Positions 2 through 39,759 of a DNA stretch of 64,000 nt are shown in pieces; positions within the stretch are counted from its first letter, which is position 1, and the number at the start of each line of letters is the position of its first letter. Position numbers and translations under genes: made by a program. This DNA is from a virus. The stretch lies in IMG/VR virus record IMGVR_UViG_3300028840_006907, positions 288,001-352,000 of that record. The stretch is one strand, 5' to 3'. The notes below the pieces were generated by a model. The model had not been told where the DNA came from and did not search any database. It worked only from the letters and a program-made list of their open reading frames with translations.

Positions 2-706
2 ATGAATTCGGTCGGAAAAAGAATTTGGATTGGGGCTGATGATCCTAAAAATTTGACCTTAAGAGTAGTAGACGAAAATTTAGACTATGCTTTTGAGATA
101 GGTATGTCTGATATGAAAGATACAGCACATTTATTAAATGCTCAAGAAATCGAAGTTTTCCGAAATAGCAAAGACCACTGGAGATTGGTGAAGGATGTCA
201 AGATCACTGAGCATCAGAAATATCTAATTAGTCATTCTTATTTCAATGGTATGGCGGATTATTTGAGTAGAATTTACAGTCAAGAGTCGTACTTTAGTGA
301 TTTACGGTTGAATGGTGAGATCAAGATATTAAAAGAAGGCGAATTACCTTTATACGATATTAATCCAGAAAAAGAAACCTATTGTTTTGGTGAGGATGGT
401 GAAGAGTTAATAAAGGTTGGATTTAAAAACAGAGTATATGTCCCTCTTTTTGAGATAGCCCAATGTCCTTTAAAAAAGTATAACTCTGTATGGGATGTAA
501 AGGTAGACGATTTTATTACCAATAATGATTTATTGGAATATGAGAACGATTTTTATGAAAGAATCGTAAAGGAGATAGGGACAAAAGTTAAGATAATTAT
601 CCCTATAAGAACTCCTATAACTGTTTTACCAGTGACTAACTGGGTTAAAGGTGAATTTGGTTTTTCATCTTTTATTATTCTTGGGATCGGAGTATTTAAA
701 CAGTGA
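2..706 (+). CDS. hypothetical protein (5' end may lie outside window)
   Basis: 234-aa ORF open from the window edge; its stop overlaps the next start (GTGA 703-706); no recognisable motif. Confidence 0.5.
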   Translation: MNSVGKRIWIGADDPKNLTLRVVDENLDYAFEIGMSDMKDTAHLLNAQEIEVFRNSKDHWRLVKDVKITEHQKYLISHSYFNGMADYLSRIYSQESYFSDLRLNGEIKILKEGELPLYDINPEKETYCFGEDGEELIKVGFKNRVYVPLFEIAQCPLKKYNSVWDVKVDDFITNNDLLEYENDFYERIVKEIGTKVKIIIPIRTPITVLPVTNWVKGEFGFSSFIILGIGVFKQ

Positions 707-1434
707 TTGATATTTTTATGACCACATGGTTTCGAGAAGAGTTCACACGTAAGTCTATTGAATTGATTCATGAAAGGACTAAACCTGGCACTTTCCAACT
801 TCATATTTTTGATAATAACAGTGGCCCGAAGATGCGCGAGTATTTAATAGGGCTTTTAAAAAATAAGAAAATAGCATCATTACATCTTGATTCTCGGAAT
901 ACCGGATGTCTTTATAATAAAGGTATTTTTCATATGATGGTGGAGGATTTTTGTAAATATTATATATGTACAGATAATGATGTCTATCCGCCTAAACTCT
1001 CTCCTGATTGGCTATCCCAGATGATTAAAATTATGGATGCTCATCCTGAACTAGCCTTTCTTGTCCCTCAGATACCCCCTCAGTGGCTTCAGGAACCTGA
1101 TCTTGCTAATTTAAAGGATGATATCGTTTATTGTAAAGCTGTTGGAAACACTTTTAAATTAGTTCGTAGAAAAGCGTTTCCTATATCAGAATTCCGTCCT
1201 GTACTAGGAGCATATGGTGATGATGCTCAGGTATGTGAACAGGTAAAATTACGAAATTATAAAGTAGCGTTTTGTCGGAATATTTTTTGTTATCATGCAG
1301 GACAATGTGAAAATTGGGGTTATAAAAAAGAAGAGATAGATTTGGATCCTCGTAAAGATGGTTACGGTAAACCGTTTAGCTATAAATTAATGAATGAAGA
1401 AACCTATGAACCTTTTCCGGAGAACAAAATATGA
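703..1434 (+). CDS. putative GT-A fold (family 2-like) glycosyltransferase
   Basis: HIFDNNSG and CTDNDVYPP (DxD-like) motifs typical of GT-A enzymes; start is GTG 703 or ATG 718; stop overlaps next start (ATGA at 1431). Confidence 0.5.
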   Translation: MIDIFMTTWFREEFTRKSIELIHERTKPGTFQLHIFDNNSGPKMREYLIGLLKNKKIASLHLDSRNTGCLYNKGIFHMMVEDFCKYYICTDNDVYPPKLSPDWLSQMIKIMDAHPELAFLVPQIPPQWLQEPDLANLKDDIVYCKAVGNTFKLVRRKAFPISEFRPVLGAYGDDAQVCEQVKLRNYKVAFCRNIFCYHAGQCENWGYKKEEIDLDPRKDGYGKPFSYKLMNEETYEPFPENKI

Positions 1435-1778
1435 AAAAGGCCACAGTAATAAGTCTGAGTGTAATAGTAGCTATTCTGGCAATAATTATTATAGTTACAA
1501 TAACTCATAACAGTGGAATAAATCTTACCAATCTTCATGTATCTGAAGATAAAAAAATTGAAGTAAATGAATGGGAACCTATAAAAACAGCCGGTGAAGA
1601 TGAACTAGTAAAAGTAGTTTGGGATCAGAAATATGGAGCTACGAAGACTGAGAATTGTAAAGTTGTATTTGAGAATAAGAAAAAGAAATTGTATAAATTA
1701 ATTGCCCCTGGTCTGGAAGTAGTAATAGAGCGTTCAAATATAAATGATATCTCATTTGAGATTATTAAAAAACAATAG
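1431..1778 (+). CDS. small membrane-anchored protein
   Basis: N-terminal hydrophobic helix ATVISLSVIVAILAIIIIVTI; translationally coupled to upstream gene. Confidence 0.5.
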   Translation: MKKATVISLSVIVAILAIIIIVTITHNSGINLTNLHVSEDKKIEVNEWEPIKTAGEDELVKVVWDQKYGATKTENCKVVFENKKKKLYKLIAPGLEVVIERSNINDISFEIIKKQ

Positions 1779-1844
1779 TGGTTCGAATAGATAGACCTAT
1801 ATATGGCACTATTCATTTAACTTTGATGTGTAAAGGAGATTGAA

Positions 1845-2657
1845 ATGAGTGAGTATATTCCTCAAATTTGTATTAGTGCTAGTGATCCTGTTAATTCGGT
1901 AAAAAGTCTACAGGGAAGTATTATAGGTATTCTATTTGAAAAAAAGGGTAAAGAAATTAAAAGTTCTATTTATGATAGACTCAAATCAATAGATAATAAA
2001 ATCAAAGAATATGAATCAGTATGTGGTAAGACTGAATCATTTGTGGAAGAGAAAGAGAAAGAACTAAAATCTTTAAAGGAATTTCATCAAACAAAAGAAG
2101 ACGAAAAAAAGGCTCTATTATTGCCTATTAAAAAGGAAATTGAAGAAAAAATAAAAAGAGCCAATGATATTACTTATGAATTTGATCTTAGTGTGTTTAA
2201 TGCAACAAAAGAGAAAGCGATTGAATTTGAAAAAGGTTTTGATGATATTAAAAATAAATTTGATGAGATAGATAATTTACTTATAAAAGATAGAGCTGTT
2301 ATTAAAGGTGCCAGAGGTATTCAGGGTTCAACAGGTCTTATGGGAGAAACGGGGATTCAGGGAGAACCTGTTCACGGTATAGGTTATGGAAGTGATGGTA
2401 ATATAGGAATAGGTACTGATAACCCTGATTCTATTCTTCATATGGGGACTGATCCAGGAGATAAAGCATATAGTAGATTAAATACACTTAATAATCTTTT
2501 AAAAAAATATATCAATAAACTGGAATCATTAAAAGAAGGTATTAATAGATTGAAAGAAGAAAAGAGACGTCTTCAATTAACCTATGATAATATTGATGAA
2601 TCCAGGGATTACAAATTAGATCTTAATATGTTGTCTGCTTTCGGTTTCGAAAAATAA
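1845..2657 (+). CDS. collagen-like / coiled-coil fibre protein
   Basis: RBS aaaggag; seven uninterrupted Gly-X-Y triplets GARGIQGSTGLMGETGIQGEP (nt 2307-2369) flanked by Lys/Glu-rich segments; IGIGTDNPDSILHMG resembles the VGIGLSSPLDALHIQ motif of the fibre at 59979. Confidence 0.6.
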   Translation: MSEYIPQICISASDPVNSVKSLQGSIIGILFEKKGKEIKSSIYDRLKSIDNKIKEYESVCGKTESFVEEKEKELKSLKEFHQTKEDEKKALLLPIKKEIEEKIKRANDITYEFDLSVFNATKEKAIEFEKGFDDIKNKFDEIDNLLIKDRAVIKGARGIQGSTGLMGETGIQGEPVHGIGYGSDGNIGIGTDNPDSILHMGTDPGDKAYSRLNTLNNLLKKYINKLESLKEGINRLKEEKRRLQLTYDNIDESRDYKLDLNMLSAFGFEK

Positions 2658-4335: not shown

Positions 4336-7320
4336 ATGGCAGAGCAATTAAAAGTTGGATGGGTCGGATATGGGGGTAATAGTTGGATGGCTGAGGATCT
4401 TCGGCCAGTTATAGAAAAGCTAGGAATGACTTTATTCACGATTCATGAACATGATAACGCAGATATTAAATGGGAAAAGGATAACTGGTTCAATCATTTA
4501 AAAAAAGCTGATATAGTTATAGCTCCAGCTAATTATAAAAAACAACCTGCAAAGAGTGCAAATCGATTAATACAATCAATGTCAATGGGTAAACCTGTCA
4601 TATGTTCTCCTTTACCTGCATATTTAGATGTGGCTAAAAAACATCCTGGTTCATTTCTTCTAGCTGATGTCCCGGAAGAATGGGAGGAATGTTTAAAATT
4701 GCTTAGAGATAATCCTTCTTTTCGTAAACAGATGAGTGAGAAGGCTCTAGAAGCTGTTGAAGATTTTTCGATAAATGTCATAGGAAATAAGTGGCTAGAA
4801 TTATTAGAGAAAGATGTACCAATAAAAAAAGATACTGAATCGAATAAAGTTCTTATTACAGATATAATCATACCTACATATAAAAATCTTCGTGGCTTGA
4901 AGTTATGTATTGAGAGTATTCTGGAGTGTACGTTAGTGCCGTACAATATTATAATTGTAAATAATGGAACTGATGAGGAATTGCATAACTATTGTTCTCA
5001 ATTGGTAAATGTAACTTACATAAAAAAAGACAGACTTAATTTTGCCCAAGCCATGAATGTCGGGATTAAAGCAGGTGATTCTGATTTAGTCGTTCTATTA
5101 AATGATGATGTTATTGTCAGTAAAGGATGGCTTATGAATTTGAAATATGCCTGTACTGAAGATGTGGGTGCAGTAGGACCTTTAAGTAATTGTGATAAAT
5201 CCTGGCTCCATAATCATGATATCAATATTGGTGGAGTAGAATTACTGCCTGGTTCAAATACTTTTGAACAAATTGAGCCTATTATTTCTCAGATATATAA
5301 TTATGAATCTCCTTTTTTAGAAGAACCTGAACGAAAATGGGTTGCATTTTATGCTACTTTAATTCCTCGGTCAGTAATAGAAGAAGTAGGTTTTTTAGAT
5401 GAGTCCTTTACAAATTCGGGAGAGGATGTTGATTATTGTAACAGGATTATGAAGTTAGGGTATAAAATAAAACAGACCTATAAAAGTTTTGTATTTCATT
5501 TCGGAGCTGTAAGTAGGAAATTACTGGAGCAGGAAGATAAGGGCACTTATCAGAAAGCTGATGAGGAGACTCAAGAATATTTAAAGATCAAGTATTCAAA
5601 ACCAACAGTAATAATCTATTCCGGTGCCAGTTGGGAGAGATGGAGTTATAAGTCTCTTGAACAGGGGGGTATTGGTGGTAGTGAAGTTTGGCAGATAAAT
5701 GTTTGTCGTGAGTTAAATAAATTGGGTTATAGAGTAATCAGTTTTAATGATTCCCCGGAAAAGGAAATGTGGGAAGATGGGATTCAATATCTTCATTATG
5801 GAGAATTTTCGAAATGGTGTGATGGTAACTATGCCGATTACGCAATTATAAGTAGAACAACCGATCCTTTACATCATCCTTTAAGAGCTGGAAAAATATT
5901 TATAATGGTTCACGATGTCTGGTTACTTTCTGCTAGAGATCAATTATTCCTTGATAAAGTAGATAAATTTTGTGTACTTAGTAAATGGCATTGGGATTTT
6001 TTTAAAGGTCACCATGGAATCCAAGATGAATCAAAATTGGCGTTGACTTCTAATGGGATAGATTTTAATCGTTATGATAACAAAAATATTGAAAGACATC
6101 CTTATAAAATGTTTTACAGTTCTTCCCCGGATCGAGGTCTTGATACACTCCTTTACCTATTTCCCTTTATTAAGGAAAAAATTCCAGAACTTGAACTCCA
6201 TATTTATTATGGATTTAACAATTGGGAAAAGGCAGTGAAGATGAGAAAAAACCAGATTGAGATAGATAGAATGAATAAAATAAAAAAGGATATGGAACAA
6301 CCTGGGGTATTTTATCATGGCCGAGTTGGTCAGAAGGAGCTAGCTGAAGCGCAATTAGAATGTTCTCTTTGGGCCTATCCGACGGATTTTGAAGAAGTTT
6401 TTTGCATCACTGCTATTGAGGCTCAAAGAGCCAGAATCCCTGTATTAGCAACGAATTACGCTGCTTTACAGACAACAGTAGGTGACTCAGGAATTCTAAT
6501 AGGAAATGGCATGAAAGGAGAATCTTATACACGAGATTATCGATTAAAATTTGTAGATGAGTGTATAAAAGTTTTAACAGATAAAGAATATAGAGAACAC
6601 TGGATTGAGAAAGGTTTAAAAAATACGGAGAAATATTCTTGGGAACAAGTGGCTAAAAATTGGAAGAAATTGTTTGAAAAAAGTGATCAAAAAGTAGAAG
6701 CAAAAATTATAGATGAAAAAGAATACAAGAAAGATCGAGTGCTAGTTCATGAAATGAAAATAAGTTCTAATTATATGCCAGATCCTCACAGCCATTTAAA
6801 TAATGAGAGAGATCGTTTTCATTATTATAAAACACTTAATGCTTTCGTTTCATCAAATTCATGTAGTGCATTGGATGTGGGTTGTTTTGATGGGTGGATT
6901 GATTTTCTTCTTATAGAACAAGGATTTAAATTAACTGGAGTTGAGTTGATGGAACCTCTTGTTCAAGCTGCTCGAAAATATGCAGAAGTTAAACAACTTG
7001 ATTATACAATTTATCAGGGTTTTTTTGAAGAGATTGAGATAGACCAGAAATTTGATTTAGTGATATGTTTGGAGACTTTGGAACATATTGATTTAAAACT
7101 TGTCCCTGAGTATATACAAAAAATGAAAAGTCTTGCTACAAAGGGTCTTTTCATATCACTCCCGGATCAGAAACATGAAGATAATACCCAGCATTTATGG
7201 ACACCTACTGAAAATTTAATAAGAAAAATGTGGGGTAATAAAAAGAATTTTTCATTGGAATACCATACTTATCAGGATTCAAATTTACCCGCTAATTGGT
7301 TAATTTATTTCGAAGTGTAG
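4336..7320 (+). CDS. 994-aa multidomain glycosyltransferase / methyltransferase fusion
   Basis: Four segments. ~4336-4830: GT-B C-terminal-half-like. ~4858-5536: GT2 (IIIPTYKN, LLNDDVIVSKGW, GEDVDYCNR). ~5608-6676: GT4/GT1 (GGIGGSEVW, EVFCITAIEAQRARIPVLATN). ~6825-7320: class I SAM methyltransferase (ALDVGCFDGW, LVICLETLEHI). Confidence 0.85.
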   Translation: MAEQLKVGWVGYGGNSWMAEDLRPVIEKLGMTLFTIHEHDNADIKWEKDNWFNHLKKADIVIAPANYKKQPAKSANRLIQSMSMGKPVICSPLPAYLDVAKKHPGSFLLADVPEEWEECLKLLRDNPSFRKQMSEKALEAVEDFSINVIGNKWLELLEKDVPIKKDTESNKVLITDIIIPTYKNLRGLKLCIESILECTLVPYNIIIVNNGTDEELHNYCSQLVNVTYIKKDRLNFAQAMNVGIKAGDSDLVVLLNDDVIVSKGWLMNLKYACTEDVGAVGPLSNCDKSWLHNHDINIGGVELLPGSNTFEQIEPIISQIYNYESPFLEEPERKWVAFYATLIPRSVIEEVGFLDESFTNSGEDVDYCNRIMKLGYKIKQTYKSFVFHFGAVSRKLLEQEDKGTYQKADEETQEYLKIKYSKPTVIIYSGASWERWSYKSLEQGGIGGSEVWQINVCRELNKLGYRVISFNDSPEKEMWEDGIQYLHYGEFSKWCDGNYADYAIISRTTDPLHHPLRAGKIFIMVHDVWLLSARDQLFLDKVDKFCVLSKWHWDFFKGHHGIQDESKLALTSNGIDFNRYDNKNIERHPYKMFYSSSPDRGLDTLLYLFPFIKEKIPELELHIYYGFNNWEKAVKMRKNQIEIDRMNKIKKDMEQPGVFYHGRVGQKELAEAQLECSLWAYPTDFEEVFCITAIEAQRARIPVLATNYAALQTTVGDSGILIGNGMKGESYTRDYRLKFVDECIKVLTDKEYREHWIEKGLKNTEKYSWEQVAKNWKKLFEKSDQKVEAKIIDEKEYKKDRVLVHEMKISSNYMPDPHSHLNNERDRFHYYKTLNAFVSSNSCSALDVGCFDGWIDFLLIEQGFKLTGVELMEPLVQAARKYAEVKQLDYTIYQGFFEEIEIDQKFDLVICLETLEHIDLKLVPEYIQKMKSLATKGLFISLPDQKHEDNTQHLWTPTENLIRKMWGNKKNFSLEYHTYQDSNLPANWLIYFEV

Positions 7321-7322: not shown

Positions 7323-7610
7323 ATGAATAGGTATGACATTATTTTGGGTAACAATAGTCGGTTAGCGATGATGGAAAAATGGTCCCCTAAAGATTATAGA
7401 CAGGAATATTTAGGGGAATTCGTAAAACCAACATGTTCAGTTTCTGATGGTCATAATAATTATTGCCCATCAAAACCAGAACATTTTTTTGAGTATCATG
7501 GTAAAGAAGTGGGTTTATGTAAAGACTGCTATTTACATTATTTAAATGGACATTTTGATAAAAGATTTCAGAAAAAGAATTATGGTTATACCATCTATCA
7601 AATCGATTAA
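7323..7610 (+). CDS. Cys/His-rich hypothetical protein
   Basis: ATG 7323 just after upstream stop (track start 7296 overlaps); CSVSDGHNNYC...CKDCYLHY suggests a metal-binding knuckle. Confidence 0.45.
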   Translation: MNRYDIILGNNSRLAMMEKWSPKDYRQEYLGEFVKPTCSVSDGHNNYCPSKPEHFFEYHGKEVGLCKDCYLHYLNGHFDKRFQKKNYGYTIYQID

Positions 7611-7611
7611 A

Positions 7612-10280: not shown

Positions 10281-10342
10281 AAATTAGATATAAGAAGTCT
10301 CATTGAGACTATTCAATAAAATAATAAATAGGAATAAAAAAG

Positions 10343-11146: not shown

Positions 11147-11176
11147 ATTTACATATAGATATTGAAAGGAGATTGT

Positions 11177-12151: not shown

Positions 12152-12154
12152 CTT

Positions 12155-12856: not shown

Positions 12857-12865
12857 GAGGATAAA

Positions 12866-22443: not shown

Positions 22444-22444
22444 T

Positions 22445-24598: not shown

Positions 24599-24661
24599 CA
24601 TGCACATTTTAACCACAATCCCATCTTATGGCTAAAAATATAATAAAAGGATGATACAAGA

Positions 24662-27856: not shown

Positions 27857-27858
27857 TT

Positions 27859-32001: not shown

Positions 32002-32615
32002 TATTCCTCTCGTTTTGGTGTTATTATCATATATCCTTGTGATTGGAAATCTCTAGTAAGAGAATGTGTCTTTCCGAATGCATCAAAAAGGAATTTTGAT
32101 CCGGAGGTAGGAGATATTTCATGGGCTAAAGTATTCGGTCCATCTGTAAAGGGGCCACTCTCATAAAGGCGTAAATCATCAGTTATAATTATATCATTTG
32201 TGACATCTTTTAAAGATGTGATTACTTCTACTTCTTTCTCACATGGGAGTCTCGTATTATAATCAGGTTCACTATTATAATAGGTATAATGGAAGTCAGC
32301 TCCTGGGAAATGAGCATCTAAAAAGAACAGTGTGTTGCCTTTCAAGTCCTTTATGATTTCGGGCAGAATTTTAAATGAGTTACCGTGATAAATTTTACAA
32401 TTTTTCCCTTTTTCTTTTGATAGAGCATCAAATTTTTTTACTGCTTTTTTATATATCTGATCATAAATCTCTATTGAATAAAAATTTTCAAAGGAATAAT
32501 TTAATGCATATTCCAAGCAATCACCTTCACCGGTACCAGTTTCAACATAATTTTTGAGGTTAAACGATTTAATCCATTTTTCCATTTCTGTAATAACTTG
32601 ATTTATGTGTCCCAT
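32001..32615 (-). CDS. methyltransferase-like protein, FLDAHFPGADF family, copy 2
   Basis: ETGTGEGDC, FFLDAHFPGADF, IITDDL, QGYMIITPK. Confidence 0.45.
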   Translation of the reverse strand: MGHINQVITEMEKWIKSFNLKNYVETGTGEGDCLEYALNYSFENFYSIEIYDQIYKKAVKKFDALSKEKGKNCKIYHGNSFKILPEIIKDLKGNTLFFLDAHFPGADFHYTYYNSEPDYNTRLPCEKEVEVITSLKDVTNDIIITDDLRLYESGPFTDGPNTLAHEISPTSGSKFLFDAFGKTHSLTRDFQSQGYMIITPKREE

Positions 32616-32623
32616 TTAATTCC

Positions 32624-33286
32624 TTATCTATAATTGTAATTGACTTTGAATAAGTCTTTGAGGTGGTAATAGTTCTTTGGTCCCCATCTTGAAAAGAGAT
32701 CAATCTTTTTTGCCTTTAAAGTAAGCTTTTCCATTATGTAATTAAACACTGTATCGATTAATTGAATCTCTTCAGCATTTTCAATTACTTTGGACCAATC
32801 AATTACATTAAAACCTTCATAAAGAGTATTATCTATTATTCTTAAATTAGTGGTAATTGGTATGGGAAAACATTTACTATGAGGAGGAGTACCATAATGA
32901 ATATTTCTAAAGACATATCTCTCATTATCTTTTAAACCTAGTATTTTATAATAAAGTTCATTTTCTTTCTTAGGGAATCTTTTAAAATTAAAGTAATTGG
33001 TCCAATCCCTGTGATCCAGTCCTACTAATTTATACTTTCCTTCCATGATAGGACCTGGAATTATTTGATCCGCATTTTGTAGATCTACATAGAGGTCTAT
33101 ATTATCGGGTTGGCCAAGAGGTACGAATTCGACTCCTGGGCTTATGAGGTAATCATTATACCATAAAAATTCTTTTCTGACGGGCCATTTTACTTGATAG
33201 CCTTGGTGCACAAAGTGCTGACCAATTTTTTGACAGAAAAAGACATCTCCAATGCCAGCCGGTTGATTTATTACGCATAGTTTCAT
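32624..33286 (-). CDS. hypothetical, GIGD family, copy 2 (possible GT)
   Basis: N-terminus MKLCVINQPAGIGDVFFCQ parallels 30656-31513. Confidence 0.3.
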   Translation of the reverse strand: MKLCVINQPAGIGDVFFCQKIGQHFVHQGYQVKWPVRKEFLWYNDYLISPGVEFVPLGQPDNIDLYVDLQNADQIIPGPIMEGKYKLVGLDHRDWTNYFNFKRFPKKENELYYKILGLKDNERYVFRNIHYGTPPHSKCFPIPITTNLRIIDNTLYEGFNVIDWSKVIENAEEIQLIDTVFNYIMEKLTLKAKKIDLFSRWGPKNYYHLKDLFKVNYNYR

Positions 33287-34090
33287 TTATCCAATAATAT
33301 CCTTTAAGTATTTGTCGTATAAGATATCTTCAATTATGTCATACTGTAAGGCAATTTTGAAATTATTCTCAATATATTCCATCAAGGAATAATACAATTC
33401 AGGGGATAAATCCGATACATCAAAGTCATCTTTTAATGTTATGATACCACGACTATCAAAAAACTCTCCTACATCGGGACTCCCATGATATACTGGAACT
33501 GTACCAGTAGTAAAACAGTCCAATATTTTTTCAGTCCAGTAAGTTTCATATTGTGAATTTTCAATTGTAACGGAGAACATGTAATCTACCAGAGCAATTT
33601 CTTTTTTCTCTATTTCATTAAACCCTCTGCCGTAAAGATCTAATTTATCTCTTAATTTATTTACCCATGCTAGTCTGAAATTATGGCCAGCACACATCCT
33701 TTTAGCAGAACTCATCATTGAGGCTAATTTAGTCTTCTTATAAATTTTAGGTTCCTTTATCCAGTACCCGTGAGAGGTGATGTAATGGAAATTATCTGCA
33801 AGGCTGTAGATTCTTTTGTCATGGGTAAATAGGAGAGGATAGGATTCTGAAATTTCTTTTGCATGGGCTATTATGTTGTCTATTACATTAGGAATAATTG
33901 AACTGGATTCTACTACCCAGGCAATTTTATTCGTTTTATTATTTATGTTCGGAACTATTTGTTCATCTACGAAAAAAGTCAGATCTTCTTGTTTACCTTT
34001 AGACCAATCAAAGTACGTAGGTTTTTTCCATAGTGTAGAAGAATAAGCATGTTGGAACCAACCACCTATAAGTCCTATTTTCTTTTTCAT
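33287..34090 (-). CDS. GT10 (alpha-1,3/4-fucosyltransferase-like) glycosyltransferase
   Basis: YMFSVTIENSQYETYWTEKILDCFTTGTVPVYHGSPDVGEFF aligns with the Helicobacter FucT motif FNLCFENTQGYGYVTEKIIDAYFSHTIPIYWGSP (from memory). Confidence 0.8.
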   Translation of the reverse strand: MKKKIGLIGGWFQHAYSSTLWKKPTYFDWSKGKQEDLTFFVDEQIVPNINNKTNKIAWVVESSSIIPNVIDNIIAHAKEISESYPLLFTHDKRIYSLADNFHYITSHGYWIKEPKIYKKTKLASMMSSAKRMCAGHNFRLAWVNKLRDKLDLYGRGFNEIEKKEIALVDYMFSVTIENSQYETYWTEKILDCFTTGTVPVYHGSPDVGEFFDSRGIITLKDDFDVSDLSPELYYSLMEYIENNFKIALQYDIIEDILYDKYLKDIIG

Positions 34091-34710
34091 TACAGACCGC
34101 CCTTGATATAGAATGCATCACCCCATGTCCCTCCATCCCATGTGGTCTCAGCTCTTTCAAAACCGTATTTTGAAAGGAAAGAATCCAACTCAGTTACCAT
34201 GCAACAATTTTCATAGACTTGATCACGATTTACTTCAGCAATGATATAGTCAATCTTTCTTAATGTCTCTGTGCCCCCTTTAAAAACTTCCAGCTCAAAT
34301 CCCTGGACATCAATATTAATGAGGTTGCTAAAATCAGAAAAATAAAAGTTGTCTAATTTTTCTACTCTTATCTCATCCGATTCTTCAAACTTAATATGTG
34401 GGTACTGTCTTAAATGTATCAGTGGTTTTAATAAGGAGCTAGATTCTCCTTGATTGGATGATTTATAGAAAGTCTTAAAACATTCTTCCGGACCTAAAGC
34501 AATGTTATAAATTCTTACTCTAGAGTCGTCTTTGATATTCTCGTATAGTACTTTAAAGGAATCTGGATCGGGTTCGAAAAAGTTCATCTCTTTTATTGAA
34601 TCATATTTTATATAAATTTTATATTCTTCCCCATAATGGGCTCCTATATGAATGATCCCAGTAACATTCATGTCGTATTTGTTTATTAATCTATCGAAAT
34701 CAAGTAGCAT
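34090..34710 (-). CDS. FkbM-family methyltransferase
   Basis: IHIGAHYGEE, NIDVQGFELEVFKGG, IIAEV. Confidence 0.7.
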   Translation of the reverse strand: MLLDFDRLINKYDMNVTGIIHIGAHYGEEYKIYIKYDSIKEMNFFEPDPDSFKVLYENIKDDSRVRIYNIALGPEECFKTFYKSSNQGESSSLLKPLIHLRQYPHIKFEESDEIRVEKLDNFYFSDFSNLINIDVQGFELEVFKGGTETLRKIDYIIAEVNRDQVYENCCMVTELDSFLSKYGFERAETTWDGGTWGDAFYIKGGL

Positions 34711-36765
34711 TTAATCCTCCCACTTAAGTTCAATCTCTTGATGTGGGGAAATATTTTTTACCCCTTTAATATTTCTGATAGATAGTTTACGGCCTTCCAA
34801 ATATTTCTGATTAAATTCTCCTGCTGAAATATTACCATGTCTGTTAGGGTAAGCTCCAACAAGATTTACAGGTATATTAACAATTTTAGATTCGTCATAA
34901 CAGAGCATCATAGGTCTTTCTGGAATCTGTTTCATAAGAGCATCTTCGAAAGTATTAGGATTGTTATAGGTACCGTTTTTTATTGCACTCATTAAATCAG
35001 GTGTACGATAGATATTTCCATCAACACTCATGGGATACCCCCAATCCCCGGCATAATTTTTCCATTCCCATTTATTTTCTGAAGAAAGATCGGGAGGCGG
35101 AGATGGTATGTTTTGGGGATAACAGAAATTGATCCTAGAGCATAATCTCAAAGAGATGCTTAAGATCTCATCTGGATTTAATTTGTCAAAGTCATTTCTT
35201 AATTTGTACGGTTCTTTGAATACAATGTCATCAACTAAAAACATTGTATATTCTTTTTCGGTATTTACAGCATTTATAACTGAATCTTTAAAATCATTAG
35301 TTTGTTTATAAAAGTAGAATCCTGGATGATCTGAGATAACTTTATCATAACCAGCTTTAAAATCATCGTTACTGTATGTCCATATAATAGTTATTTTGAA
35401 TTCGTACCAGTTTTCCCAAAGTTCCTTTATACTTCTTAATAATAAATCTAGTTGACATGCCCGATCTTTACTGAAAATAACAACATTCATATTTTTTAGT
35501 CTTTTATAGGGAGGTCTTTGGAAGATCCCATGAGCACAGTCCCTCTGTGTAGACCCTCTTTTATGGTCATTGACATCACTTTCAGTATTATAGATGTAGT
35601 TAAATGAAGTTAATAATTTAGCGTGTGAAGGACCTGCCATTTCGAGCATGGGTATCATGAATGACAAATCTCCTGCCATATGCCAGAAAGTGTCACCAGA
35701 GATAAAATCTCTTTTATCTATTTTTCTAAACAGCCATGTTTTAAAGGTCCTTAAATGAGTGGCTCTCCAGTCGGTGGTTTTTCTGAGAAGGTCCCAATTG
35801 GGCATTTTTGCCCATCCATCTCGTTCACCTCTTCCATTATATTCTCTAAATTGTCCGAATGAGATCCAGGTATCCGGGTCTTTATAAGCTTCAAGGACTC
35901 TTTCAAAAACCTTATTGTCATCTGGTAGCCAGTCATCTCCATCAATATTTATACAAATATCTTGATTATTAATTTCGGGTCTATGTAAAGTATGATAATA
36001 ATTTCCGCTGACATATCTTTTTTCGGTATTATTTATAATAACAAATCGATCATCTCCGTAAGTATGCCTTTCAATAAAATCAAGACTGTTATCTGTAGAT
36101 AGGTCATTACAGATATAACATTTCCAGTTTCTTACTGATTGGTTTTTTATACTGTTGATACATCGGATAATGTATTTACCTGCATTCCAACATGGAGTGA
36201 CAATTCGTAATGTATTTTTTTCTTCTTGATATTCTTGTAACACTTTGACTTCAGGTTTGGTCTCTTCTTTTTGGATACTCTTTTTTCGAACAACAATTTC
36301 GAAGGACCATTCTCCGTACATTTTTAAGTCGTAACGTTCATGATGGATAAGTTCTACACCACCTATTTTTTGAAGAATTTCCCAGAGATCTTCCCAGCCA
36401 AAATGATGGATATGTTTTTTGTTACATCTTGGATCATCTAATGGATGATAATATTCTTTGTCTACTTGGTAGAGGACTAGATATCCATCATCTTTGAGTA
36501 TTCTGAGCCACTCTCTGAGGGTTGCTTCGGTATCATATATTTCTTCCAATAAATGACTGGAATAGACATAATCAAAATGTTTATCAGGGTAGCAGGGCAT
36601 GAGACGGGCGTCTATGGGCATGTCTGCGAAAGGACTTAAAAGATCTATCCCTATAGCATCAATTTTTATTTTTGTATTACCACAGCCTAAGTCAACTCCT
36701 TGACCTTGACAGTATTTGAGTAATCTATTTCTGCAATTATCTGTTTCTCCTTTATGTCTTTCCAT
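34711..36765 (-). CDS. 684-aa methyltransferase-GT2-unknown domain fusion
   Basis: ~36765-36271: class I MTase (VDLGCGNTKI, FDYVYSSHLLEEI). ~36213-35506: GT2 (IVTPCWNAGKYIIRCINSIKNQ, NIDGDDWL). ~35476-34711: uncharacterised domain starting VVIFSKDRACQLDLLLRSI. Confidence 0.8.
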   Translation of the reverse strand: MERHKGETDNCRNRLLKYCQGQGVDLGCGNTKIKIDAIGIDLLSPFADMPIDARLMPCYPDKHFDYVYSSHLLEEIYDTEATLREWLRILKDDGYLVLYQVDKEYYHPLDDPRCNKKHIHHFGWEDLWEILQKIGGVELIHHERYDLKMYGEWSFEIVVRKKSIQKEETKPEVKVLQEYQEEKNTLRIVTPCWNAGKYIIRCINSIKNQSVRNWKCYICNDLSTDNSLDFIERHTYGDDRFVIINNTEKRYVSGNYYHTLHRPEINNQDICINIDGDDWLPDDNKVFERVLEAYKDPDTWISFGQFREYNGRGERDGWAKMPNWDLLRKTTDWRATHLRTFKTWLFRKIDKRDFISGDTFWHMAGDLSFMIPMLEMAGPSHAKLLTSFNYIYNTESDVNDHKRGSTQRDCAHGIFQRPPYKRLKNMNVVIFSKDRACQLDLLLRSIKELWENWYEFKITIIWTYSNDDFKAGYDKVISDHPGFYFYKQTNDFKDSVINAVNTEKEYTMFLVDDIVFKEPYKLRNDFDKLNPDEILSISLRLCSRINFCYPQNIPSPPPDLSSENKWEWKNYAGDWGYPMSVDGNIYRTPDLMSAIKNGTYNNPNTFEDALMKQIPERPMMLCYDESKIVNIPVNLVGAYPNRHGNISAGEFNQKYLEGRKLSIRNIKGVKNISPHQEIELKWED

Positions 36766-36788
36766 TTTATTCCTCTAATTTAAATATG

Positions 36789-37337
36789 TTATCTGTTATC
36801 TTTTACAATCTGTTCTAATTGAGCTATACGATTTTTTAACTCAGTATTTTCAGTTTTTAATTTTTCTAATTCTTTCTCTTCTTCAATTTCGGTGTCTTTT
36901 ATCATAATGGAAAGAATTTCAATTTCAGCAGGTTTAATAATTTCTGGAAAATGTTCGAAATTAATTAAATAGAAATCTATTTCGATTTCTTCCTCCAGAA
37001 TTGAGTTGATTTCAGTAAAGAGTTTTTCATATTTATTTTTTAAATCAATAAGTTCAATTTTGAATTGAGGATTTTCTGCAACACCTTTAAATTCTTCGTT
37101 CTCGATGATGGGGGCATTATTTTCGTCTCTATCCACATATTTGGCACAAAGGTTTAGTCTCTTTTCTTCAAATTCATTTAAATCTTTTTGAAGGTTATCT
37201 AATATTTCGAGTTCTTCTTTTATCTTGTTTTTATTTTTTAATAAACCTAGTCCAAACCATTTGGATGCATCTATAATACTAACTCTTTGTATTGATTCGT
37301 TAATTTTTTTGATTTCTCCTCTTTTTATTTTAGCCAT
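36789..37337 (-). CDS. hypothetical coiled-coil protein
   Basis: 182-aa ORF; Glu/Lys-rich with C-terminal ELEKLKTENTELKNRIAQLEQ. Confidence 0.5.
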   Translation of the reverse strand: MAKIKRGEIKKINESIQRVSIIDASKWFGLGLLKNKNKIKEELEILDNLQKDLNEFEEKRLNLCAKYVDRDENNAPIIENEEFKGVAENPQFKIELIDLKNKYEKLFTEINSILEEEIEIDFYLINFEHFPEIIKPAEIEILSIMIKDTEIEEEKELEKLKTENTELKNRIAQLEQIVKDNR

Positions 37338-37344
37338 TTTTTTC

Positions 37345-37842
37345 TCACTCTGTCCTTGTTATGTTGTAAACTTCAGTTTTTATCTTATCTAATTTTTTAA
37401 GAGTATCTTTTAAATTTTTCTCTATATCAAAGATTTCTTTCACAAATACTTCACTAGCGTTATATTGACCTTTTTTTATTTGCATTATAGCTATTTGTCT
37501 ATGTTCCGGTTCTGAAAGTACAAGAACGGTATTATCAGGAATTTTTCTTGAAATTATAACAGTAGCTCCCCACATATAACCCATAATACCATTTCTTATA
37601 GATTCTTTTCTTGTCTCCATATCAATTGAATCTTTACAAAATTTTCTAATATCAACATAAGATCTAGAATTCATTAAAACTTCATTTACTCTATTTTCAT
37701 GTTTTTCTATTTCTGCAAATCCATCAGCTAAAATATCGGGTATAAAATTAGGAATAGGGCTTTTAATAATTTTCCTAATATTTAATGACTTGATGAATTC
37801 TTCATATTCTATGTCTTTTAATTCTTTCGATAGGTATGCCAC
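37345..37842 (-). CDS. hypothetical protein (shares xWGA motif with 38393 and 38722 genes)
   Basis: GIMGYMWGATVIISRKIPDNTVLVL resembles KIWGAQIWIAPEATEIKAY and GFLWKTPVLLIEEATEVKVY of neighbours. Confidence 0.5.
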   Translation of the reverse strand: MAYLSKELKDIEYEEFIKSLNIRKIIKSPIPNFIPDILADGFAEIEKHENRVNEVLMNSRSYVDIRKFCKDSIDMETRKESIRNGIMGYMWGATVIISRKIPDNTVLVLSEPEHRQIAIMQIKKGQYNASEVFVKEIFDIEKNLKDTLKKLDKIKTEVYNITRTE

Positions 37843-38393
37843 TATTCATCCCCTTTAAAGATAGTATCTAAAAGTGAACCTTTATTATCCGATAATATGC
37901 AATTTTCGAAATAGGTTTTGAAAGATAAAGCATTTATTAATCGTTGAAAATCGACTCTTATTATTTTAAAGAAATAGTCATAAGCACAAGATGGGCATAT
38001 ATGATATATTTCAGGTTTTCCAGAGTTTTCTGAAACAATATCATATTTAATACATGTACTCTTAGCAGGGATATTACATCCTTTGATAGAACATTTTTGA
38101 GCCCATTCAATTATCTCTATGAATACTCTTCCTTTTTCACCATTATAGAAATTTGTGTAGAAAGGATTTATTTTCATATAAGTAATAGGGAATATATTAT
38201 ATACAGTAAGAACCGTATGGGGCTCTTTCATTGTTGCATCGATATCTTCTGAATTTCGTGAAATATATAATTCAGAGTCACATTGCATAATTTCTTTAGC
38301 CTTATTTTTATCACTAGTGGCTATTACTACTCTGTATGAGAAATTCAAAAGATTATCAAAATATTTATCAGTTGTAAATACTTCTAAATTCAT
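37842..38393 (-). CDS. hypothetical Cys-rich protein
   Basis: CSIKGCNIPAKSTC...ICPSCAY putative zinc site. Confidence 0.5.
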   Translation of the reverse strand: MNLEVFTTDKYFDNLLNFSYRVVIATSDKNKAKEIMQCDSELYISRNSEDIDATMKEPHTVLTVYNIFPITYMKINPFYTNFYNGEKGRVFIEIIEWAQKCSIKGCNIPAKSTCIKYDIVSENSGKPEIYHICPSCAYDYFFKIIRVDFQRLINALSFKTYFENCILSDNKGSLLDTIFKGDE

Positions 38394-38731
38394 TATAATC
38401 CTAATCTTTTAATAGTATGAGCTATATTTGGGAAATCCTCTTTTAATATATTAAATTGATTTTTACTATATGCTTTGATTTCGGTTGCTTCAGGAGCTAT
38501 CCAAATTTGAGCACCCCATATTTTTGCACAACATCCTTTTTCAAAACGTTCCTTATTTTTTTCAAAATCAAAAAAATTGTATACTTCTCTTGCGTAAAAC
38601 CAGTCTTGTGGGCCTATAATTATATGATCAACTTCTTCTTTAGCGCTTCGTATTTTTGAAAATATCTGTCCAAAATATCCGATTATATCTTCTTCATTCA
38701 TTTTTTTTAAAATTGACATGTCTACTCCCAT
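38393..38731 (-). CDS. hypothetical protein, tandem paralogue 1
   Basis: Shares the ...W(G/K)...EATE(I/V)K(A/V)Y...F...(K/M)KDFPN pattern with 38722-39081; start 38731 or 38719. Confidence 0.5.
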   Translation of the reverse strand: MGVDMSILKKMNEEDIIGYFGQIFSKIRSAKEEVDHIIIGPQDWFYAREVYNFFDFEKNKERFEKGCCAKIWGAQIWIAPEATEIKAYSKNQFNILKEDFPNIAHTIKRLGL

Positions 38732-39081
38732 CGTACTTTTTGTAATAATAGATTGTTAGGGAAGTCTTTTTTCATATCACTGAAATTTCCTTCGTGGTAA
38801 ACTTTGACTTCAGTTGCTTCTTCAATTAATAATACAGGGGTTTTCCATAGGAAACCCACTAGTCCATCTTGAGAGTGTTCATGTTTTTCGATAGAGTCGG
38901 TGTCTAAATATTCTCTGATACCTGATAAGGATGTGAGATAATCCCAATCAATTCGATTTATTATCATATAGCGTGGTTTTTTCTCTTGTCTGATAAAGAG
39001 CAAAGAGATGTGATTAATTACTTTATTCTTTTTAGTATTTTTATTACCGGTTTTTCCAGCGATTTCTTTTAAGCTTGGCAT
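38722..39081 (-). CDS. hypothetical protein, tandem paralogue 2
   Basis: See 38393-38731. Confidence 0.5.
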   Translation of the reverse strand: MPSLKEIAGKTGNKNTKKNKVINHISLLFIRQEKKPRYMIINRIDWDYLTSLSGIREYLDTDSIEKHEHSQDGLVGFLWKTPVLLIEEATEVKVYHEGNFSDMKKDFPNNLLLQKVRWE

Positions 39082-39084
39082 TTA

Positions 39085-39759
39085 CTATTCCCGGTAAAAA
39101 GGTGGAAAGGAAACCCAATCTTTCATTCCTTTTAGAACGAGTCCATCTACATCTACCTGCATTCCTCCTACTATTTGGATCATGGGTTTGAACTTTTCAC
39201 AAATTCTTTTTATAAATCGGAAATCATGTTCAGGTTCATGTCTCCAAGGTTCTTCGATGGCCCATTCTCTTTTTACTATATAACAAGGAGTACCTACGTG
39301 GCATATGATAGGAAACATATGAATATCAATTTCAGGAACAAGAACAATTGTCTCGGGATCTCCATCTTTATACATCCGGGATTGCTGACATGACATCTGT
39401 ACTATACCAATCATGTTGTCACGGCAATTTGAGATGAGTGTTTCGAGATAAGTATCTTTGTAACGATCATCATCATCACAAAATACTAGGTATTGTCCCC
39501 GAGAAATTTTTATACCGTGATTTCGTGGTTTCGTTCCTGGAGAGATATCCATATTACCGTAATCTTTTTCGATATTACAGAATTGTGTCCAGGGTCCAGC
39601 AGTTTTCATTAAGTTAATGACATCTACAGGAGGTGGTCCATCATATACTATTATATGTTCAAAATTTTTAAAAGTTTGGTTTTTGAAATCGTTAAGTAAA
39701 TTTGATAGTTCTCTTACACCGCGAGAAGCAGGGGTAATAACACTGATAGTTGGTCCCAT
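39085..39759 (-). CDS. GT2 family glycosyltransferase
   Basis: ISVITPASRGVRELSNLLNDFKNQTFKNFEHIIVYDG and VFCDDDD (DxD). Confidence 0.8.
   Translation of the reverse strand: MGPTISVITPASRGVRELSNLLNDFKNQTFKNFEHIIVYDGPPPVDVINLMKTAGPWTQFCNIEKDYGNMDISPGTKPRNHGIKISRGQYLVFCDDDDRYKDTYLETLISNCRDNMIGIVQMSCQQSRMYKDGDPETIVLVPEIDIHMFPIICHVGTPCYIVKREWAIEEPWRHEPEHDFRFIKRICEKFKPMIQIVGGMQVDVDGLVLKGMKDWVSFPPFYRE

Follow-up and report, generated by a model that had tools for sequence, protein, structure and literature searches.

Large T4-like cyanophages carry published sugar gene clusters of 20–26 genes, and the clusters homologous to the locus described here have traditionally been read as modifying the LPS or cell wall of the host. 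We analysed a 64,000-nt stretch (the window) of the 388,651-bp contig of a huge uncultured phage (~390 kb), which originates from saline-lake metagenomes and recurs in several assemblies. At least 42 kb of this phage genome is given over to soluble enzymes of sugar synthesis and decoration, and part of the island they form is homologous to one published cyanophage cluster. An earlier note on this DNA had regarded the island as an exceptional investment for a phage; in view of the published and partly homologous cyanophage clusters, this holds in a relative sense.

Layout, setting and conservation of the island

Between positions 703 and 39759 of the window there are ~54 genes, 27 of them with a solid glycan-related assignment (63% of the bases); eight further weak assignments raise these figures to 35 genes and 77%, and about 19 genes have no assignment. 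The ~39-kb region of glycan synthesis and decoration proposed earlier is thus real. The gene map also agrees with two convergent blocks meeting at 25.5–27 kb: the plus-strand block ends at 25480, the minus-strand block spans 26948–39759, and two small genes, 25632–26090 (minus) and 26196–26963 (plus), form the junction. Fibre genes, which had been thought to flank the island, are not adjacent to it; the first fibre-like gene comes at 59979, ~20 kb further right. The island begins before the window, where a gene for a 693-aa GT2-TPR-methyltransferase lies 2.1 kb upstream. It contains many small orphans and also a thymidylate kinase gene (tmk, 7582–8247, plus strand; precomputed Pfam Thymidylate_kin match) that is not glycan-related. 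A Mom-domain protein gene lies near the island, and a rhodanese (47967–48536; E 8.4e-10) is encoded two genes before an outlying fourth sulfotransferase (49032–49610, plus strand; Pfam Sulfotransfer_2, E 1.7e-9).

Several observations point to a phage, not a bacterial chromosome, as the carrier of the island. The contig encodes a head–tail connector (at 52410) with homologues in the jumbo phages Tunturi_5, LR745208 and phage G, and also Tad3, an inhibitor of Thoeris, and the C-terminus of a tail fibre. In the 82 kb of context, phage genes were seen to either side of the island and no bacterial housekeeping genes; tetranucleotide composition is uniform (r 0.975–0.988 between island and flanks), and the island is devoid of membrane machinery. 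The contrary scenario named in the earlier note, in which an ordinary O-antigen/capsule locus of a bacterium sits next to a prophage, and its variant, a chimera of such a locus and phage DNA created in assembly, are therefore largely refuted, and we consider both very improbable. The individual enzymes do come from mostly bacterial families, but the same arrangement, junctions included, was recovered from assemblies independent of one another and from diverged relatives. Moreover, the closest cellular homologue of the LegB protein among 185,579 species genomes is merely 50% identical and belongs to Acidimicrobiales (71% GC), and the membrane components that define O-antigen and capsule loci are absent from the island. 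The island is native to the phage genome, the rest of which it matches in composition.

All 19 genes of the plus-strand block, orphans included, are syntenic in the relative L007 and under strong purifying selection (dN 0.18–0.38 in 18 genes and 0.85 for the gene at 21162; dS above 1.8 or incalculable). Another relative, L020, shares the gene order of the minus-strand block and the junction.

Activated sugars and their decoration

The plus-strand block (8.9–25.5 kb), on whose strand all genes of this section lie unless stated, encodes a nucleotide-sugar dehydrogenase of the UDP-glucose 6-dehydrogenase family (Ugd, 8931–10280; TIGR03026 E 6.5e-100, above cut-off). It is accompanied by an extended SDR nucleotide-sugar epimerase/reductase, Fcl/GalE-like (11177–12151; Pfam Epimerase and GDP_Man_Dehyd; NCBIfam Fcl E 3.6e-30, below cut-off), with homologues in 32 viral loci at up to 62% identity, and by a sugar-1-phosphate nucleotidyltransferase (12155–12856; Pfam NTP_transferase; NCBIfam guanylyl- and uridylyltransferases E 1e-39 to 1e-24, with no equivalog-level match). 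An ArnA-N/Fmt-like formyltransferase (12866–13759; Pfam Formyl_trans_N and Formyl_trans_C; NCBIfam E 2e-45) is probably a sugar N-formyltransferase, and the next gene encodes a PIG-L/LmbE-family N-acetyl-sugar deacetylase (13756–14415; Pfam PIG-L; BshB1 E 3e-15).

A full pathway to a CMP-nonulosonic acid, a sialic-acid-like sugar, is encoded as well. It consists of a LegB-like NDP-HexNAc 4,6-dehydratase (14412–15380; TIGR04180 E 4.5e-117, 390 bits, cut-off 475), a LegC/PseC-like PLP aminotransferase (15373–16449; TIGR04181 E 1.4e-90, 304 bits, cut-off 420; Pfam DegT_DnrJ_EryC1), a nonulosonic acid synthase of the NeuB/LegI/PseI family (17132–18151; Pfam NeuB; below the equivalog cut-offs for both TIGR03569, E 1.8e-72, and PseI, E 1.4e-52), a PseG-like GT-B nucleotide-sugar hydrolase (18144–19052; TIGR03590 PseG E 2.1e-17, below cut-off; Pfam Glyco_trans_1_4 E 1e-4) and a CMP-nonulosonic acid synthetase, or cytidylyltransferase (19056–19718; Pfam CTP_transf_3; PseF E 1e-12). 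Most of the Leg/Pse assignments lie below the NCBIfam equivalog cut-offs and do not fix stereochemistry or nucleotide carrier, and a sugar identity finer than nonulosonic acid is suggested here conditionally. We propose that the block would make activated sugars, among them UDP-glucuronic acid and, in CMP-activated form, a 5,7-diamino nonulosonic acid of legionaminic/pseudaminic type. The latter would arise through the 4,6-dehydratase, the aminotransferase, N-acylation by the formyltransferase and/or a hexapeptide acetyltransferase, the PseG-like hydrolase, the NeuB-type synthase and the cytidylyltransferase.

Sulfotransferases and methyltransferases of the same block may decorate this product. 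The protein encoded at 16446–17141 has no Pfam match and represents a new family; its AlphaFold model (pLDDT 89.3) has a sulfotransferase fold, which confirms a call first made from motifs, and sulfotransferases make up all of the best 30 PDB matches by Foldseek (E 4e-5, probability 1.0). Its paralogue at 20397–21158 (blastp E 9e-30) has the PAPS-loop motif MGNSGG and RxP invariant. A third sulfotransferase (21730–22443) has a precomputed match to Pfam Sulfotransfer_1, as have its homologues in L007 and in a further relative, L008. With the gene at 49032, the expected three plus one were recovered, by Pfam, fold or paralogy. The acetyltransferase is a hexapeptide-repeat protein (21162–21737; Pfam Hexapep; WbbJ E 4e-18; NeuD/PglB family E 9e-13), and a possible arylamine-type N-acetyltransferase (23109–23795) is borderline (Pfam Acetyltransf_2 E 1.5e-4, 22.1 bits, cut-off 22.8). 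Profile matches likewise confirm the earlier calls of the acetyltransferase, formyltransferase, deacetylase, tmk and nucleotide-sugar set.

The earlier count of at least 10 methyltransferases stands at seven on solid matches and reaches 10 with three weak ones. The solid ones include class I SAM enzymes at 19715–20374 (Pfam Methyltransf_23/31/11/25), 24662–25480 (UbiE/CMAS-like, multiple Pfam methyltransferase families; final gene of the block) and, on the minus strand, 31513–32001 (Methyltransf_23). A CmcI-like enzyme (22445–23116; precomputed Pfam Methyltransf_24), whose L007 homologue also matches RMNT_CmcI, an FkbM-type enzyme (34090–34710, minus; precomputed Methyltransf_21) and two domains of the multidomain proteins at 4336 (C-terminus) and 34711 (minus; N-terminus) complete this set. 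The weak ones, all on the minus strand, are 32001–32615 (Methyltransf_4, weak), its paralogue 30039–30656 (blastp E 8e-32, no HMM match of its own) and 26948–27496 (Methyltransf_24 E 0.0058), the final gene of the minus-strand block. A heavily N- and O-modified glycan, as previously suggested, fits the N-formyl, N-acetyl, O-methyl and sulfate enzymes together with the nonulosonic acid.

Glycosyltransferases and the module common to aquatic phages

The island has 6–10 glycosyltransferase domains depending on the weak calls, so that the claim of at least nine holds when these are counted and fails on the solid calls, because several (718, 10343, 23767) fall below threshold. A 994-aa enzyme (4336–7320, plus strand) combines GT2 (aa 177–389), GT4/GT1 (aa 447–761, with the GT1/GT4 match itself at aa 598–761) and class I methyltransferase (aa 841–960) domains, all above the Pfam cut-offs, and its PDB matches are chondroitin synthase and methyltransferases. 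On the minus strand, a 684-aa protein (34711–36765) joins an N-terminal methyltransferase to GT2 (aa 188–348; Pfam) and an unassigned C-terminal half, and the first gene of the block encodes a GT2 enzyme (39085–39759; Pfam E 4.7e-11; PDB TarP-type GlcNAc transferase E 1.7e-7). Weak GT2-like calls, all on the plus strand, were made at 718–1434 (Glycos_transf_2 E 0.004, below cut-off; PDB SpsA E 0.024) and for two orphans, 10343–11146 (Pfam GT2 E 0.012; 76% identical in aa sequence to the homologue in L007, dS saturated) and 23767–24570 (Glyco_tranf_2_3 E 0.0064; conserved in L007 and L020).

The core of the minus-strand block also occurs in Synechococcus phage S-SM2 and in more than 30 viral contigs. 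It comprises two truncated proteins, one E1-alpha-like with the thiamine-diphosphate PP domain only (27859–28485; Pfam E1_dh; PDH E1 alpha E 1.6e-26 over aa 11–167; 33 of 35 viral loci) and one E1-beta-like with the Pyr domain only (29514–30038; PDH E1 beta E 8.9e-17; 34 of 35), a GT10 enzyme of the fucosyltransferase family (33287–34090; precomputed Pfam Glyco_transf_10; 30 of 35) and a GT-B glycosyltransferase of a new family without Pfam match (30656–31513). The structure model of the last gives a GT9-like fold, in line with the tentative earlier call, with TibC, a heptosyltransferase that acts on protein, among its matches. An orphan of the module (32624–33286; 31 of 35) is a glycosyltransferase candidate only, which resembles the GT9-like family in a 35-residue N-terminal motif and nothing more (hhalign probability 6%). 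The block also encodes a radical SAM enzyme (28478–29527; Pfam Radical_SAM; matches to NCBIfam families of radical SAM/SPASM maturases, E 1e-25 to 1e-9, do not reach equivalog level). GT2 enzymes complete the block (27–39.8 kb) around this module (E1 pair, GT9-like, GT10 and methyltransferases), which many aquatic phages share. We suggest that the multidomain GT2/GT4/methyltransferase proteins, including the GmaR/SunS-like one upstream, may assemble and cap the glycan.

In S-SM2 the module is accompanied by heptose-pathway genes and by GT11 and GT25 enzymes typical of LPS. This, the standard reading of the homologous cyanophage clusters, and a multidomain GT-GT-methyltransferase layout resembling that of ABC-transporter-pathway O-antigen polymerases and terminators, favour remodelling of the host envelope, where phage enzymes would use the host undecaprenyl carrier to build or modify a polysaccharide of the cell surface (O-antigen, capsule or S-layer glycan) and depend on the host for initiation, export and ligation. 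Masking of receptors could then bring superinfection exclusion or fewer progeny lost to cell debris; alternatively, the infected cell would be protected through the long cycle of a huge phage. We consider envelope remodelling unlikely, though a serious contender.

Membrane machinery and the putative acceptor

No flippase, polymerase, initiating transferase or polytopic membrane protein was found in the island (at least 42 kb); none of its proteins has more than two hydrophobic segments, and there was no match to Wzx, Wzy, Wzz, ABC transporter or phosphoglycosyltransferase families. As all the enzymes are soluble and no protein for lipid-carrier initiation, flipping or polymerisation is encoded, the evidence leans towards cytoplasmic assembly directly on protein acceptors. 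The same lack of integral membrane proteins argues against envelope remodelling: to our knowledge, the experimentally known phage systems that change host surface glycans (gtrABC, Oac, Wzy-type) all use them. Host flippases or transporters would also have to handle a glycan that is foreign to them and heavily decorated. Among relatives of solved structure, the best match of the 693-aa enzyme is GmaR, a flagellin O-GlcNAc transferase (E 4.5e-18), followed by SunS/ThuS-type peptide glycosyltransferases (E 1e-12). These relatives, which weigh against envelope remodelling, the TPR protein-interaction domain of this enzyme and the TibC match were counted for protein glycosylation.

The island is set among virion genes (connector at 52410, fibres from 59979), which argues for a virion target. 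We therefore tentatively favour, at somewhat below even chances, cytoplasmic glycosylation of phage proteins over envelope remodelling; the putative acceptors would most likely be virion proteins (fibres, capsid or tail), modified during morphogenesis. Against this we counted that no recognised nonulosonic-acid transferase (Maf, FlmG or sialyltransferase family) was found, that neither a capsid nor a tail tube gene was found in the phage sequence examined, and that the LPS/cell-wall interpretation of the cyanophage module may still hold. Host proteins could also carry out lipid-carrier, flippase and ligase steps, and the membrane-protein search covered the island, in a contig that has ~300 kb more.

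GmaR and SunS act on flagellin and on a secreted peptide, and with the many small orphans of the island this would suit another cytoplasmic target, such as host flagellin, pilin, S-layer protein or a glycocin-like peptide from a small orphan; however, the leader-peptide and transporter genes that mark glycocin loci were not detected in the island. Hypermodification of phage DNA bases belongs here too, given tmk within the island, the nearby Mom-domain protein and the documented phage glycosyltransferases with DNA as glycan acceptor. Yet the window showed neither a hydroxymethyl-pyrimidine pathway nor a DNA glycosyltransferase family. Nonulosonic acid, sulfate and O-methyl decoration is not known from DNA, and this whole group of non-virion targets appears improbable.

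Glycosylation of virion proteins by a self-contained, phage-borne island would be similar to that of mycobacteriophages and giant viruses. Compared with the sugar clusters of big cyanophages, the island is a larger and richer version, the minus-strand core of which was already known.

Gene content and the nonulosonic-acid pathway

The ORF map bore out the two convergent blocks that the earlier note had described, namely a + block of genes up to 25480 and a − block from 26948 to 39759. The stretch 703–39759 is also glycan-rich, as had been claimed, but the island begins before the window does, with a 693-aa glycosyltransferase gene 2.1 kb upstream; the fibre genes thought to flank it are in fact about 20 kb away. 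Using precomputed and new HMM searches, we observed that 27 genes with a solid glycan-related assignment cover 63% of 703–39759, and that 8 further genes with a weak assignment bring the coverage to 77%. No assignment was obtained for about 19 genes, tmk and small orphans among them, and a PHROGs search with ten island orphans gave nothing usable. The solid glycosyltransferases are three GT2 domains, one GT4, one GT10 and one GT9-like fold, and three GT2-like genes appear as sub-threshold matches. Seven methyltransferase assignments are solid and three, again sub-threshold matches, are weak. We also tried 32624–33286 (−) as a second GT9-like enzyme. This was not supported, as hhalign aligned only a 35-residue N-terminal motif, with a probability of 6%, and this orphan is at most a candidate glycosyltransferase.

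The + block runs over 8931–25480 from a UDP-glucose 6-dehydrogenase-family gene through a GT2-like orphan, an SDR epimerase/reductase, a sugar-1-phosphate nucleotidyltransferase, a formyltransferase, a PIG-L deacetylase, a LegB-like 4,6-dehydratase, a LegC-like aminotransferase, a sulfotransferase-fold protein, a NeuB-type synthase, a PseG-like hydrolase, a CMP-sugar synthetase, a methyltransferase, a second sulfotransferase-fold protein, a hexapeptide acetyltransferase and a Pfam sulfotransferase to two methyltransferases, between which lie a borderline N-acetyltransferase and a GT2-like orphan. Judged from family matches, the logic of the block is that of a whole CMP-5,7-diamino-nonulosonic-acid pathway. 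The NDP-HexNAc 4,6-dehydratase step (LegB/PseB) falls to 14412–15380 (TIGR04180, E 4.5e-117), at family level only, because its 390 bits are under the hypothetical-equivalog cut-off of 475. The C4 aminotransferase step (LegC/PseC) falls to 15373–16449, where the matches to TIGR04181 (E 1.4e-90) and PseC (E 3e-61) are both under their cut-offs. The 4-amino N-acyltransferase (LegH/PseH) has as candidates the formyltransferase 12866 and the hexapeptide acetyltransferase 21162 (NeuD/PglB family, E 9e-13), neither being assignable to the step. The hydrolase 18144–19052 has a PseG-like match (E 2.1e-17; 64 bits against a cut-off of 154), and an NCBIfam search of the island proteins found no LegG/NeuC-type hydrolysing 2-epimerase. 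The PEP-condensing synthase (NeuB/LegI/PseI) is 17132–18151 (Pfam NeuB; TIGR03569, E 1.8e-72), and the CMP-sugar synthetase (LegF/PseF/NeuA) is 19056–19718 (Pfam CTP_transf_3; PseF, E 1e-12). As most of these matches do not reach the equivalog cut-offs of NCBIfam, and the hydrolase resembles PseG and not LegG, we left the choice between Leg and Pse stereochemistry unassigned.

The formyltransferase and the deacetylase together suggest an exchange of N-acetyl for N-formyl groups; N-formylated Leg and Pse are natural sugars. NeuB homologues were found in 2 of 50,697 deposited phage records and, at ≤34% identity throughout, on at least 17 IMG/VR contigs; such collection scans depend on the search patterns and give lower bounds. 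NeuB is thus rare in phages but present, and we do not claim a first occurrence.

The earlier note had called 16446–17141 (+) a sulfotransferase from a motif alone, and structure prediction confirmed the call. The protein, which has no HMM match anywhere, was modelled with the aid of 11 homologues and reached a pLDDT of 89; sulfotransferases make up all of its top 30 PDB matches. The product of 20397–21158 is its paralogue (E 9e-30). phmmer searches of the PDB with 16446, 30656, 10343 and 23767 were uninformative, and the sulfotransferase-fold family (our A3) was not found in IMG/VR. Two families are new from the island, the sulfotransferase-fold family and the GT9-like family, both being without a Pfam model. 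At 8–10 kb outside the island there is a small sulfur-related pair, in which a rhodanese-domain protein (47967–48536 (+), E 8.4e-10) is encoded two genes upstream of the outlying Sulfotransfer_2 gene 49032–49610 (+).

A small protein with an N-terminal signal/lipoprotein-like hydrophobic segment and a weak BamE-like match (E 0.002) is encoded alone at the convergent junction, at 25632–26090 (−); it is the sole candidate for an envelope-directed product of the island, and is kept in the diverged relative L020. Scans for terminators and promoters at this junction performed no better than on shuffled sequence.

A shared phage module and the identity of the genome

Read from 39759 to 26948, the − block starts with a GT2 gene, five orphans, the 684-aa methyltransferase-GT2 protein (34711–36765), an FkbM-type methyltransferase, the GT10 gene and the orphan 32624. 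Methyltransferase-like genes, the GT9-like enzyme 30656–31513 (−), a truncated E1-beta-like gene, a radical SAM gene and a truncated E1-alpha-like gene follow, and the block closes with an orphan and the weak methyltransferase-like 26948–27496 as last gene. Within this run of five orphans, the adjacent small genes 38393–38719 and 38722–39081 (−) are mutual paralogues (E 4e-9).

Homologues of the E1-alpha-like, E1-beta-like, GT9-like, 32624, GT10 and SDR genes co-occur in about 31–35 of 35 other viral loci. Among them are T4-like contigs from freshwater, on which the module adjoins portal, gp13, gp15 and prohead protease genes, and also the cultured Synechococcus phage S-SM2, where it resides inside an annotated 20-kb sugar cluster (SSM2_191–216). 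The GT9-like enzyme is 42% identical to SSM2_199, which adjoins a transketolase-like gene. The E1-like/GT9-like/GT10 module is widespread in aquatic phages. The GT9-like family itself was seen at 33 IMG/VR loci (L021–L053), and SSM2_199 is annotated as 'hypothetical protein'.

At 27859–30038 (−), the E1-alpha-like and E1-beta-like proteins are reduced to two cofactor-binding domains (208 and 174 aa) with the radical SAM gene between them, while in T4-like relatives (L018, L019 and L054) the two proteins have their full length (312 and 347 aa) or form a fusion, and there is no radical SAM gene. C2-branch addition to a keto-sugar is known from AviB1/B2-type systems. The thiamine-diphosphate E1 pair might catalyse such an addition, or a transketolase-type precursor reaction.

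Both blocks recur in diverged relatives. Of the + block genes, 19 stand in the same order on a 16.4-kb contig from a different sample (L007), at 29–76% amino-acid identity. In this comparison dN is 0.18–0.38 for 18 of the 19 genes and 0.85 for the hexapeptide acetyltransferase 21162, and the synonymous sites are saturated. Low dN with saturated synonymous sites argues that the orphans of the + block are real, constrained genes. The − block and the convergent junction recur on the 18.6-kb contig L020, together with the start of the + block. We also considered a recent copy of a sequenced bacterial locus and found it unlikely, since the closest cellular LegB found in a pattern-limited scan of 185,579 species genomes, from a high-GC lineage, is only 50% identical. 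The island is a stable, ameliorated part of the phage lineage, built from the widely shared phage module and a lineage-specific nonulosonic-acid module.

The window corresponds to about positions 88,443–152,442, reversed, of contig Ga0180437_10000019 (388,651 bp; JGI metagenome 3300017963), of which 82 kb were read in all (record 78,778–161,012). Its proteins recur on about seven contigs from several assemblies, the longest being 469,617 bp. By its predicted genes, the source is a tailed phage. The 301-aa product of 52410–53315 has a homologue in the jumbo phage Tunturi_5 (E 5e-29, 89% coverage), the head-tail connector, whose gene has tail genes next to it downstream; further matches are to phage G gp165 and, at E 6e-38, to an uncultured phage of 485 kb. 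The C-terminus of a 1228-aa repeat protein (59979–63665) matches the P-SSM2 tail fibre, and proteins of 1158 aa, 741 aa (Laminin_G_3) and >1305 aa come after it. We observed no T4 hallmark family in the 82 kb, the connector having its kin in Tunturi_5, LR745208 and phage G. A megablast search of 50,697 deposited phage records with 50 kb of the window gave a sole match of 88 bp and no near relative, and a search of IMG/VR with the fibre protein did not retrieve the contig. No integrase was seen in the window, and Rfam at the gathering threshold gave no match.

The earlier note had also raised a contrary scenario, in which the contig is a bacterial chromosome with an ordinary glycan locus beside a prophage. 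What we found are the connector, the tail fibre and a Tad3 protein, no tRNA, rRNA or housekeeping gene in the 82 kb read, and a tetranucleotide composition of the two island blocks that correlates with that of the rest of the phage sequence at r 0.975–0.988. Because of these observations, we rejected the bacterial-locus and misassembly readings, and consider a bacterial origin or an assembly artefact extremely improbable.

Several other elements lie in the region to the right of the island. The Tad3 protein (Pfam Tad3, Type I Thoeris inhibitor, E 3.9e-33; 142 aa, 50824–51252 (+)) adjoins an array of about 15 degenerate direct repeats at 51406–52260, with a modal period of 61 nt and the core TATTCCCCGC-loop-GCGGGGCTGA. 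Its shape and spacing are those of a type I-E-like CRISPR array (29-nt repeat and 32-nt spacer), with the stem pairing held despite sequence changes; the repeats have no Rfam match, and the window has no cas gene. It could be a phage-borne mini-array, a route to host or competing elements. A low-GC patch (0.29) at 53409–55916 (−) encodes a fusion protein of about 816–835 aa. Myb-like units are repeated at its N-terminus and HTH motifs lie at its C-terminus, and it also has a DUF7487/HNH-homing-endonuclease-like region and a Mom domain (DNA modification); this Mom/HNH protein gave the sole match when ten large right-flank proteins were searched against PHROGs and Pfam. The 592-aa product of 41453–43231 (+) has a short SWIM-zinc-finger-like segment, and a Tunturi_5 'tail protein' matches it over only 55 residues (E 1e-6); the rest of it has no assignment.

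Acceptor and target of the glycan

None of the proteins of the 54 island genes has more than two hydrophobic segments. Searches with Pfam and NCBIfam gave no family match in the island to a phosphoglycosyltransferase, Wzx, Wzy, Wzz, an ABC transporter, a ligase, an oligosaccharyltransferase or Gtr/Oac. Seroconversion of the gtr/oac type, that is, O-antigen modification by lysogenic conversion, was therefore discarded, there being no GtrA flippase, GtrB, GtrC or membrane O-acetyltransferase in the island.

The best clue to a protein acceptor is the 693-aa GT2-TPR-methyltransferase encoded upstream of the window (L005:6436–8517), a protein in which TPR_1 and TPR_2 score above their cut-offs. Its best solved relatives are GmaR, which in Listeria transfers O-GlcNAc to flagellin (E 4.5e-18), and then SunS/ThuS, which glycosylate peptides (E 1e-12). 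TibC, a protein heptosyltransferase, is among the matches of the GT9-like fold. The absence of membrane machinery from the island, the GmaR/SunS-like GT2-TPR protein, the TibC match and the position among virion genes led us to propose that the decorated glycan would be assembled in the cytoplasm directly on protein acceptors, most plausibly virion proteins; to this model we give close to an even chance.

Remodelling of the host envelope, the classical reading of the cyanophage clusters, would need the host to supply the carrier and export steps that the island does not encode. It stays viable because 82 kb of the 388,651-bp contig were read, and we regard it as possible if rather doubtful. 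Other cytoplasmic targets, DNA among them, appear unlikely.

Assembly on virion proteins can be put in a fuller and more tentative form: this uncultured huge phage may cover its particle, probably on the fibres or capsid, with a sialic-acid-like glycan that bears N-formyl, sulfate and methyl groups, and all the enzymes for it would be soluble, cytoplasmic and encoded by the phage. If this is true, it would be the phage counterpart of giant-virus fibril glycosylation, and the phage would be the first virus known with a complete CMP-legionaminic/pseudaminic-type pathway for its own particle. With its own rare-sugar pathways, a protein-type glycosyltransferase and no export machinery, the island is one of the clearest cases bearing on whether large environmental phages make complex glycan coats. 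A coat of this kind, sialic-acid-like and sulfated, could influence how virions adsorb, how stable they are, how they behave as colloids in brines and whether they escape recognition by hosts or grazers.

Comparison with known systems

The classes of genes in bacterial O-antigen and capsule loci (sugar pathways, glycosyltransferases, decoration) are those of the island, and there too they are packed tightly into blocks that run in one direction. The island differs from them in its place in a phage genome and in lacking the initiating transferase (WbaP/WecA type), the flippase or ABC transporter (Wzm/Wzt), the polymerase Wzy and the chain-length regulator Wzz. The island can also be compared with the bacterial islands for cytoplasmic O-glycosylation of proteins with Leg/Pse (flagellin of Campylobacter, Clostridium and Caulobacter; Listeria GmaR), in which NulO genes likewise stand beside soluble glycosyltransferases and methyltransferases. 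The GT2-TPR architecture and the GmaR sequence similarity are common to both, and TPR-guided protein glycosyltransferases such as FlmG are documented. Unlike those islands, the present one is on a phage, has no flagellar context, and yielded no detectable Maf or FlmG-type NulO transferase.

Giant viruses (Mimivirus and its relatives) coat their particles without host machinery, using their own rare amino-sugar pathways and glycosyltransferases. Their fibril clusters resemble the island in encoding both; however, these are eukaryotic viruses, the genes are unrelated, and the sugars are viosamine, bacillosamine and rhamnosamine. A parallel in composition comes from the N-glycan of the Halorubrum sp. 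PV6 S-layer and of VP4 of the virus HRPV-1 (PMC6137143). The enzymes of the island that correspond to this glycan are Ugd, the sulfotransferases, the formyltransferase and the Leg-type pathway, and the island, too, comes from saline-lake metagenomes. In the published case, the pathway is host-encoded, the glycan is N-linked by the archaeal oligosaccharyltransferase and the virus borrows it, whereas here the genes are viral. As the pathway there is host-encoded and archaeal, we treat the parallel as a lead only; neither the 33% GC of the phage nor its type I-E-like repeats point to haloarchaea as the host.

To our knowledge, small mycobacteriophage systems are as yet the only ones in which glycosylation of a phage virion has been shown. 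As summarized in PMC12619734 and PMC12801897 (Freeman et al. 2023), it is proven there with few glycosyltransferases; these are phage-encoded, soluble and cytoplasmic, some come with a methyltransferase, and they act on capsid and tail proteins, as in the model that we favour. The island likewise encodes soluble glycosyltransferases with no export machinery. By these summaries, the mycobacteriophages use a handful of genes and host nucleotide sugars, and the evidence is experimental, whereas the island has dozens of genes with predicted sugar pathways of its own and would glycosylate by analogy.

The nearest kin are the LPS or 'cell wall synthesis and modification' clusters of T4-like cyanomyoviruses (S-SM2 SSM2_191–216, P-SSM2, S-SCSM1 and S-SCSM2R), which, like the island, are contiguous nucleotide-sugar and glycosyltransferase clusters in large lytic aquatic phages. 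These clusters have been known for twenty years, and we know of no demonstrated function for them. A 2025 paper on S-SCSM2R counted 22 cell-wall/LPS genes with 13 glycosyltransferases, possibly the highest number in a marine phage. The likeness is one of true homology through the module of E1/transketolase-like, GT9-like (at the 42% identity to S-SM2), GT10 and SDR genes. The phage itself is not T4-like (Kyanoviridae), its connector having kin in phage G and Tunturi_5-type jumbo phages, and its E1 pair, unlike that of the cyanophage clusters, is trimmed to the two cofactor-binding domains. The island is also about twice the size, with 27–35 genes in at least 42 kb against 22–26 genes, and goes beyond these clusters in its predicted complete CMP-nonulosonic-acid pathway, 3–4 sulfotransferases, N-formyltransferase and radical SAM enzyme. 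It is a larger and chemically richer form of the cyanophage-type glycan clusters.
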